A DNA stretch of 64,000 nucleotides, taken from assembly GCF_011045215.1 (NCBI RefSeq), contig NZ_CP049201.1. One strand, 5' to 3'. Position 1 is the first letter of the stretch. Every line of letters starts with the position of its first letter. Below are positions 49,495 to 50,270 of the stretch, in pieces. The position numbers and the translations under genes are program-made. The notes under the pieces are model-generated. The model searched no databases and was not told where the DNA came from. It worked only from the letters and a program-made list of their open reading frames with translations. Source of the DNA: Escherichia coli. Its GTDB lineage: Bacteria; Pseudomonadota; Gammaproteobacteria; Enterobacterales; Enterobacteriaceae.

Positions 49495-49803
49495 TCAAAG
49501 AGCGGCGATGATGCACAGCCCGCACGAGGCAATATTCGCACAAGAATCAGGTTCAGAAATAACCTGATCTGGCATGGTGGGGAGAGTATCACTGAGCAGG
49601 CTTTCGGTAAAATGCGGCGGGATGAGGTCGGCGTGGGTTGCAGCAGTACAATGTCGCCCGCAGAGGGTAAGCCACAGCGCGGGATCCTCGGTTTCTATCA
49701 GGGATTCGACGAAGTGGGCGCAGTTGTCGACCAAGGCGGTGAAATCCATAGTGACATTATAAGGAAACGAACAATAGATCGAGTAAATCGCAGTCAGGGA
49801 CAA
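49495..49803 (-). CDS. hypothetical small protein
   Basis: ORF track 102 aa; AGGAG about 9 nt upstream of the 49803 start; alternative Met at 49749 (MDFTALVDNCAHFVESLIETEDPALW...); no family recognised. Confidence 0.45.
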   Translation of the reverse strand: MSLTAIYSIYCSFPYNVTMDFTALVDNCAHFVESLIETEDPALWLTLCGRHCTAATHADLIPPHFTESLLSDTLPTMPDQVISEPDSCANIASCGLCIIAAL

Positions 49804-50024
49804 GGATTGTAGTCATAGAGAAGTCTCCTGTAACGGTTTTCAGGAAGCTAATCCCGACGCCTGATTTTGCAGGCGCGGAAGGAGAAGATACTGCGGCCAT
49901 TAATCCGCCACAAGGCATTTACGTGCATAAATCGCGCAGTCAAATCCGACTCCCACTGTAGTTCTTGAACCTGATACCACATTTAGCTAATTTAGCTAAC
50001 TTATCTATTATACCAGTGGTTGCC

Positions 50025-50270
50025 ATGAATATGAATGAAGACGAGATTTATCGCCATATCCGGCAGGCACTTTCCAGTGCGCCTCGTAACCAGTACACCG
50101 TCGAGCTGCACCTGCAAATGATTAAATATGCCGACAAACTGGAACACATTACGGCAAAAGCCTTTTGCGAAGGCACTGGTCTGAACCAGAGCCTCGGTAC
50201 CGAATTCAGCAAAATGCGTAACTTAACCCATCGGTTAAAGGCCGCCGGTCTGAATACCGATCTGCTGTAA
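50025..50270 (+). CDS. hypothetical small protein immediately upstream of hsdM (possible regulator)
   Basis: ORF track 49965..50270 begins with TTG; first ATG at 50025 gives 81 aa MNMNEDEIYRHIRQALSSAPRNQYTVELHLQMIKYADKLEHITAKAFCEGTGLNQSLGTEFSKMRNLTHRLKAAGLNTDLL; ends 39 nt before hsdM. Confidence 0.5.
   Translation: MNMNEDEIYRHIRQALSSAPRNQYTVELHLQMIKYADKLEHITAKAFCEGTGLNQSLGTEFSKMRNLTHRLKAAGLNTDLL

Follow-up and report, generated by a model that had tools for sequence, protein, structure and literature searches.

The 64,000-nucleotide stretch of Escherichia coli DNA examined here (the window; contig NZ_CP049201.1) contains a restriction-modification (R-M) gene, hsdM, that is preceded by two small ORFs and, in the spacer between them, by a tandem palindrome. 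What these ORFs are, what the palindromes bind, and how hsdM is controlled are the questions raised by this locus. A sequence-only reading of the region took the ORFs for a divergent pair of genes, recognised no family for either product, and suggested that the plus-strand protein could be a controller-type regulator that times restriction expression.

We found that the plus-strand small gene before hsdM is rptR, which opens the RptR-hsdM-hsdS-darT-darG-hsdR-M48 (RRDM) phage-defence island. RptR, its structure, operator and function are already known from a 2025 study that named the regulator and examined the seven-gene RRDM island of EPEC E2348/69 (Zhang et al., Nucleic Acids Res 2025; PMC12255303). 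We reached this paper through a full-text match to the motif string TTAGCTAA, and a literature search under the family names 'HTH_73' and 'PF24718' found nothing relevant. The sequence-only reading is an independent rediscovery of a known regulator and adds nothing fundamental to it.

The small gene preceding hsdM encodes RptR

The plus-strand ORF spans positions 50025–50270 in the list of open reading frames, which corresponds to 81 amino acids. The conserved start lies two codons later, at the second ATG (50031), and defines rptR (50031–50270, +), which is identified by Pfam, PDB, AF2 and PGAP evidence as encoding a 79-aa four-helix repressor. The start at 50031 is the one used by PGAP, by the crystal structure and by 80 of 80 homologues; PGAP labels the 79-aa product 'HTH-like domain-containing protein'. 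Both small ORFs that were originally seen flanking the spacer are present, but the plus-strand gene encodes 79 rather than 81 residues and the minus-strand ORF is no credible gene (see below).

RptR gives a full-length match to the Pfam family PF24718 (HTH_73; E = 2.1e-28), with residues 4–73 aligned to positions 1–70 of the 71-position model, and the domain is present in all 688 relatives of RptR found in the database. Conservation is remarkably high: the best 120 of these 688 relatives, which come from Enterobacterales, Vibrio, Shewanella, Methylomonas and Nitrosomonas, show 72–99% identity. Comparison with solved structures identified PDB 9R2Z, which is the crystal structure of the EPEC RptR homodimer at 1.3 Å (WP_000343040.1; PMC12255303) and is identical to the window protein at 76 of 79 residues (96%). 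The three differences (N2D, N52S and H67R) fall at none of the positions published as contacting DNA or forming the dimer interface. Searches of NCBIfam and PHROGs with both small proteins returned no meaningful family. The initial impression that neither protein belongs to a recognised family holds for the minus-strand ORF, which has no match in Pfam, NCBIfam or PHROGs, but not for the plus-strand protein, with its Pfam family and its PDB structure.

The AF2 model of RptR has a pLDDT of 94.5 and consists of four helices (residues 3–16, 19–32, 42–49 and 53–71), the last of them being the long C-terminal helix α4. Foldseek aligns the model with 9r2z_B at a TM score of 0.92 and an rmsd of 1.2 Å, and nothing else in the PDB was significant, all other matches having an E-value above 1. 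Structure prediction, which had been suggested as a check on both proteins, places the plus-strand one with a known DNA-binding protein. In EPEC RptR, DNA is recognized through the N-terminal part of helix α4 (T57–K61), where E58 and K61 are invariant, and an S60G mutant is binding-defective (PMC12255303). The published DNA-contact residues T57, E58, F59, S60 and K61 are all present in the window protein, as are the published dimer-interface residues V24, E25, L65, R68, L69, A72 and L74. An alignment of 23 homologues shows that the contact and interface residues are invariant or nearly so: E25, E58, F59, S60, K61, L69 and L74 do not vary, and T57 and A72 are conserved to at least 90%. The same alignment has no variation in the segment S54-x-G56-x-EFSKMRNLT. 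The stretch originally noticed as helix-turn-helix-like (residues 40–65) was well chosen, covering helices α3–α4 and the DNA-contact residues T57–K61. Both the identity and the fold of the protein are established for the window.

The RRDM island and its surroundings

The genes in and beside the island are, in order, Ag43, a YeeP-like GTPase, a 314-aa unknown ORF, rptR, hsdM, hsdS, darT, darG, hsdR and an M48 peptidase, and from rptR to the M48 gene the order is identical to that of the published RRDM island. The first defence gene under the RptR-controlled promoter is hsdM (50310–52748, +; 812 aa), which begins 39 nt after the rptR stop codon with no terminator-like site between the two genes. 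It is followed by hsdS (52742–54088, +). Between hsdS and hsdR lie darT, encoding the DarTG2 toxin (54101–54757, +; NCBIfam toxin_DarT, E = 1.9e-78), and the antitoxin gene darG (54742–55821, +; NCBIfam antitoxin_DarG, E = 2.5e-135). The series continues with hsdR (55840–58935, +) and a gene for an M48-family metallopeptidase (58935–59651, +), the last gene of the RRDM island and likewise counted as an island member in EPEC (PMC12255303).

The HsdM protein of the window has 812 residues, compared with about 520 in the classical form, and carries a coiled-coil-like C-terminal extension. Across genera, RptR is most often partnered by this long form of HsdM.

Several other features of the surrounding sequence were observed. 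The approximately 830 bp to the left of rptR (~49200–50030) are mostly unannotated, include a pseudogene fragment, and are found together with the island in E. coli genomes whose left neighbours differ (a ParA gene, IS2 or ISEc8). The 314-aa ORF (48088–49032, −) adjoins the island. Neither PADLOC nor NCBIfam nor any other source assigns it clearly to a family, and only its N-terminus weakly resembles GIY-YIG (group I intron endonuclease; E = 0.017). An Rfam search over positions 46000–60500 identified no structured RNA except the IS102 RNA (74 bits; 46647–46883, −), which lies in the leader upstream of the Ag43 gene. By eye, the minus-strand ORF at 60259–60816 looks like an outer-membrane protein of the Ail/Lom/OmpX type. 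Another ORF, at 61312–62208 (−), is rich in glycine and alanine, contains an AENN(LVGG) motif that by eye recalls the pre-toxin boundary of CdiA/Rhs proteins, and could represent an orphan toxin module lying downstream of the island.

Phased palindromes overlap the island promoter

In EPEC the island promoter consists of a −35 box, TTGAAC, and a functional −10 box (the 5' box), AGCTAATTT, 14 bp downstream; scrambling the −35 box abolishes reporter activity (PMC12255303). RptR dimers bind cooperatively, with a modest KD of about 185 nM and a Hill coefficient of 3.4, to an operator of three 9-bp direct repeats, TTTAGCTAA, overlapping the −10 box (PMC12255303). The minimal site is TAGCTA, in which G5/T5 and C6/A6 are tolerated, and two adjacent repeats are enough for full repression (PMC12255303). 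The window contains an identical −35 box at 49965–49970 (+), where the EPEC probe YZ268 matches it at every base. The sequence AGCTAATTT is found at 49985–49993 (+), 14 bp after the −35 box, and, sharing both sequence and spacing with the EPEC element, would be expected to serve as the −10 box as it does for the orthologue.

The tandem self-complementary octamers reported near 49982–50000 are indeed there. The sequence ATTTAGCTAATTTAGCTAAC (49981–50000) contains the octamer TTAGCTAA at 49983–49990 and again at 49992–49999, and the two copies make an exact 9-bp direct repeat, ATTTAGCTA. The octamer occurs four times in the 64-kb window compared with 0.53 copies expected by chance. The corresponding direct repeats, TTTAGCTAA, lie at 49982–49990 (+; TAGCTA at 49984–49989) and 49991–49999 (+; TAGCTA at 49993–49998), and both are identical to the EPEC repeat, which supplies the evidence from EMSAs and reporters.

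The phased pattern TAKMTA-N3-TAKMTA has two overlapping matches in the 64-kb window, both at this position, compared with 0.02 expected. It exposes a third site in the 9-bp register, TATCTA at 50002–50007, within a third unit, CTTATCTAT (50000–50008, +). This site would probably also be bound; TATCTA is one of four site variants predicted to be tolerated (PMC12255303). The operator is composed of three 6-bp palindromes with a 9-bp period and is about 26 bp long overall. Where an RptR operator is defined as at least two TA[G/T][C/A]TA sites that are spaced by 9 bp and overlap the −10 box, the window has three phased sites (49984–50007), and no other phased RptR operator was identified in the 64-kb window. 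The presence of the sites and their phasing are established here.

The plus-strand island promoter escaped a simple promoter scan, which did call a stronger-looking minus-strand promoter at 50035–50007. This predicted leftward promoter, TTCATA-17-TATAAT with a TG upstream, is near the sigma-70 consensus. It shares sequence with both the rptR start codon and the third repeat unit and is absent from the published description (PMC12255303). If active, it would yield a divergent or antisense transcript across the operator.

The loci of the window and of EPEC are alike in having RptR proteins of one family that are 96% identical, the same island order, the same −35 and −10 boxes, and TTTAGCTAA repeats overlapping the −10 box. 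The EPEC EMSA probe, AGTTCTTGAACCTGATACCACATTTAGCTAATTTAGCTAATTTAGCTAACTTATCCATTA, aligns base for base with the window except for one TTTAGCTAA unit and one C-to-T change. EPEC has three TTTAGCTAA repeats followed by TATCCA, whereas the window has one unit fewer and the C-to-T change makes the sequence that follows TATCTA; the window thus has two canonical sites and one that is predicted to be permissive. The left flanks also differ, with orf314, the GTPase and Ag43 in the window and IS elements in EPEC.

When 5,426 complete E. coli genomes were searched with short queries, about 247 proved to contain the promoter, and only four records had the exact three-repeat form of EPEC. The alignment of the two-repeat query covered 96–100% of its length in sampled records and never fell below 80% across the 248 matching records, 112 of which had an identity of at least 99%. 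Because so few three-repeat records were found, the promoter of the window represents the common form and that of EPEC a rare one. Most E. coli islands have two repeats and a TATCTA or TATCCA unit, which bears on the sensitivity of repression in typical strains. We infer from the EPEC system that the two-plus-one repeat variant of the window would behave like the EPEC promoter.

The minus-strand ORF is a pseudogene remnant

The minus-strand ORF (49495–49803) encodes 102 amino acids from a TTG codon or 84 from an ATG at 49749. Were it functional, the regulator and a partner, or the two halves of a toxin-antitoxin-like system, could form a divergent pair sharing a bidirectional operator. The consensus-like promoter at 50035–50007 points to this ORF, and the roughly 830 bp to the left of rptR accompany the island in several E. 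coli backgrounds, as might be expected of such a pair. However, the first ~75 residues of the ORF resemble a family of 153–155-aa proteins with respect to which it is both frameshifted and truncated. Homology is confined to 49764–49543, corresponding to residues 15–91 of the 153-aa family. The frame is lost near 49543, and beyond this point there is a weak continuation in another frame and the remainder of the family sequence is missing.

The relatives of the ORF also argue against a functional pair. They form only nine E. coli clusters of variable length. Within the same stretch there is a 4-bp insertion in EPEC, Z1323CEC0005 and TW14588 and a 1-bp insertion in HS13-1, and PGAP annotates no gene at this position in any of these four strains. 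Of the 79 loci from other genera, 76 lack the ORF upstream of rptR, and a relative is present only in L002 and L003. As noted above, its product has no family. The 153–155-aa family, which itself has no Pfam domain, is widespread in Enterobacterales and is sometimes mis-joined to 'ash family' annotations; Dickeya oryzae has an intact 153-aa gene at the same position, beside a Ner-like repressor.

On the basis of the nine variable clusters, the frameshift relative to the 153-aa family and the indels in other strains, we reject the minus-strand ORF as a real gene. A functional divergent pair is very unlikely, and the pair of genes perceived in the sequence-only reading dissolves into one gene and a frameshifted, truncated remnant. 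The minus-strand ORF is a decaying pseudogene fragment that is unrelated to the RptR system and lies outside it, and an annotated 'hypothetical protein' on this strand is best treated as such a fragment.

RptR and its operator are conserved across genera

We surveyed RptR loci by scanning one genome per species, which yielded 80 loci. The rptR gene is 240 bp long in all 80. In 62 of the 79 homologous loci from other genera, the 100 nt upstream of the start codon contain two or more TA[GT][CA]TA sites spaced in exact 9-bp register, and 44 of the 79 have three phased sites. Control windows from the same loci contain at least two phased sites in only 1 of 1528 cases. The phased sites cluster 20–60 nt before the ATG. 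The flanking sequences diverge completely between genera; the site sequence and the 9-bp phasing are kept. This conservation is established by the survey, which agrees, from different data, with the published conclusion that the RptR protein and its sites are conserved across Gammaproteobacteria (PMC12255303).

In most of the 80 loci a defence gene follows rptR on the same strand after 3–150 nt. The following genes are highly varied and include long and short forms of HsdM and EcoAI-type HsdR. Published neighbourhoods of RptR contain a type I R-M system in 54 of 117 cases, and the neighbours other than R-M systems were described as modules 'of unknown function' (PMC12255303). We identified several defence systems by name downstream of RptR and a phased operator: Gabija GajA/GajB (L030:6305-10025), Lamassu LmuA/C/B (L074:6259-9940), a type III R-M Mod/Res pair (L070:6238-10575), a MADS-like set (L057:6258-11262), an HKD-Snf2 protein (L077:1999-6193), an Hsp70-like protein with an IetA-like ATPase (L037:4815-9160), and a Dam-like methyltransferase with HerA (L052:6297-10879). 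A TrlF/Ppl-like ATPase is likewise found with a pAgo-PNTD-like protein (L010:6309-10213), a pairing present in 15 loci. The RptR proteins heading these varied systems are 79 aa long and 63–90% identical, and have the same TA[G/T][C/A]TA operator at the 9-bp phase.

The M48 peptidase was also considered as an obligate, CapP-like partner that removes RptR. A tblastn search for M48 over the surveyed loci, whose 6-kb flanks end before the type I operons do, identified it in a single locus, L001, which is the copy of this island in E. coli NCTC86. The two-gene RptR operons that do not encode R-M systems end without M48. Because M48 was found only in L001 and is missing from the short non-R-M operons, it is unlikely to be an obligate partner of RptR, and this role is unsupported.

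Probable autorepression by RptR and its relation to controller proteins

The similarity to EPEC suggests a mechanism for the window. RptR would act as a 79-aa four-helix homodimer, each dimer recognizing a 6-bp palindrome, TA[G/T][C/A]TA, via T57–K61 at the start of helix α4. Dimers would load cooperatively on the sites placed every 9 bp, which in the window would be TAGCTA at 49984, TAGCTA at 49993 and TATCTA at 50002. As these sites overlap the −10 box that follows the TTGAAC element, their occupancy would block RNA polymerase and the whole operon would thus be autorepressed, until phage infection relieves repression. Dimerisation, binding, cooperativity, repression and the loss of defence on overexpression are taken for the window from the literature on the 96%-identical EPEC orthologue. 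In EPEC, EMSAs with scrambled repeats, point mutagenesis and GFP reporters demonstrated direct binding and repression by RptR, overexpression of RptR led to loss of phage protection, and hsdM was induced 15-fold on phage infection (PMC12255303). We consider it very probable that the island promoter is autorepressed by cooperative RptR dimers on 9-bp-phased sites overlapping its −10 box.

The sequence-only reading proposed a controller-type regulator, and the classical controller (C) proteins are the obvious comparison. In these systems a protein with an Xre-type helix-turn-helix activates and then represses transcription from C-boxes, delaying the appearance of the nuclease in a new host. C proteins such as C.PvuII, C.AhdI and C.Esp1396I resemble RptR in being small, dimeric autoregulators of an R-M operon that act at palindromic repeats overlapping their own promoter, and the authors of the RptR paper draw the same analogy (PMC12255303). 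However, C proteins have a five-helix Xre-type fold, whereas RptR has four helices, matches HTH_73 with no match to Pfam HTH_3 or HTH_31, and retrieves no C-protein or Xre structure with Foldseek. The roughly 35-bp C-boxes consist of two longer palindromes read through two major grooves; the RptR operator is made of 6-bp palindromes at a 9-bp period, each bound within a single major groove. C proteins are encoded upstream of the nuclease gene, whereas rptR precedes hsdM, and hsdR is the sixth gene of the island. Additionally, C proteins are activators before they become repressors, the regulation published for RptR consists only of repression and of induction on phage infection (PMC12255303), and RptR homologues also head systems other than R-M. 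On the grounds of fold, operator and gene position we reject membership of RptR in the C-protein family, a reading that we regard as highly improbable. The suggestion of a regulator acting at the hsdM promoter nonetheless survives, given the binding and repression observed for the EPEC orthologue.

The idea that the repeat is a mere duplicated −10-like element, arising by 9-bp slippage and having no protein-binding role, draws on unit junctions that read TAATTT and on copy numbers of two or three in different strains, but it is scarcely credible in view of the site sequence and phasing conserved across genera amid fully divergent flanks, the almost invariant recognition helix that accompanies them, and the direct binding to the EPEC repeats revealed by EMSAs with scrambled repeats and by point mutagenesis (PMC12255303).

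RptR as a possible generic regulator of bacterial immunity

Autorepression by RptR also finds a parallel in BrxR/CapW (WYL-domain) regulators and CapH-CapP, which are also repressors that head diverse defence operons, with one regulator family being reused. These regulators are larger and have a sensor (WYL) domain or a partner protease, whereas RptR consists of one 79-aa domain and lacks a sensor. In comparison with CapH-CapP, none of the non-R-M RptR loci that we inspected contained the M48 peptidase of the island.

Given the range of systems it precedes, we incline slightly towards the view that RptR is a generic, portable promoter-plus-repressor cassette for bacterial immunity and is not specific to R-M systems. 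Such a cassette would imply a single de-repression signal that is triggered by infection and is independent of the effector. If this is true, the signal would also be independent of M48, which is missing from these loci. Naming the varied systems that stand behind RptR is a modest extension of the published work, and it sharpens the question of which signal removes RptR on infection.
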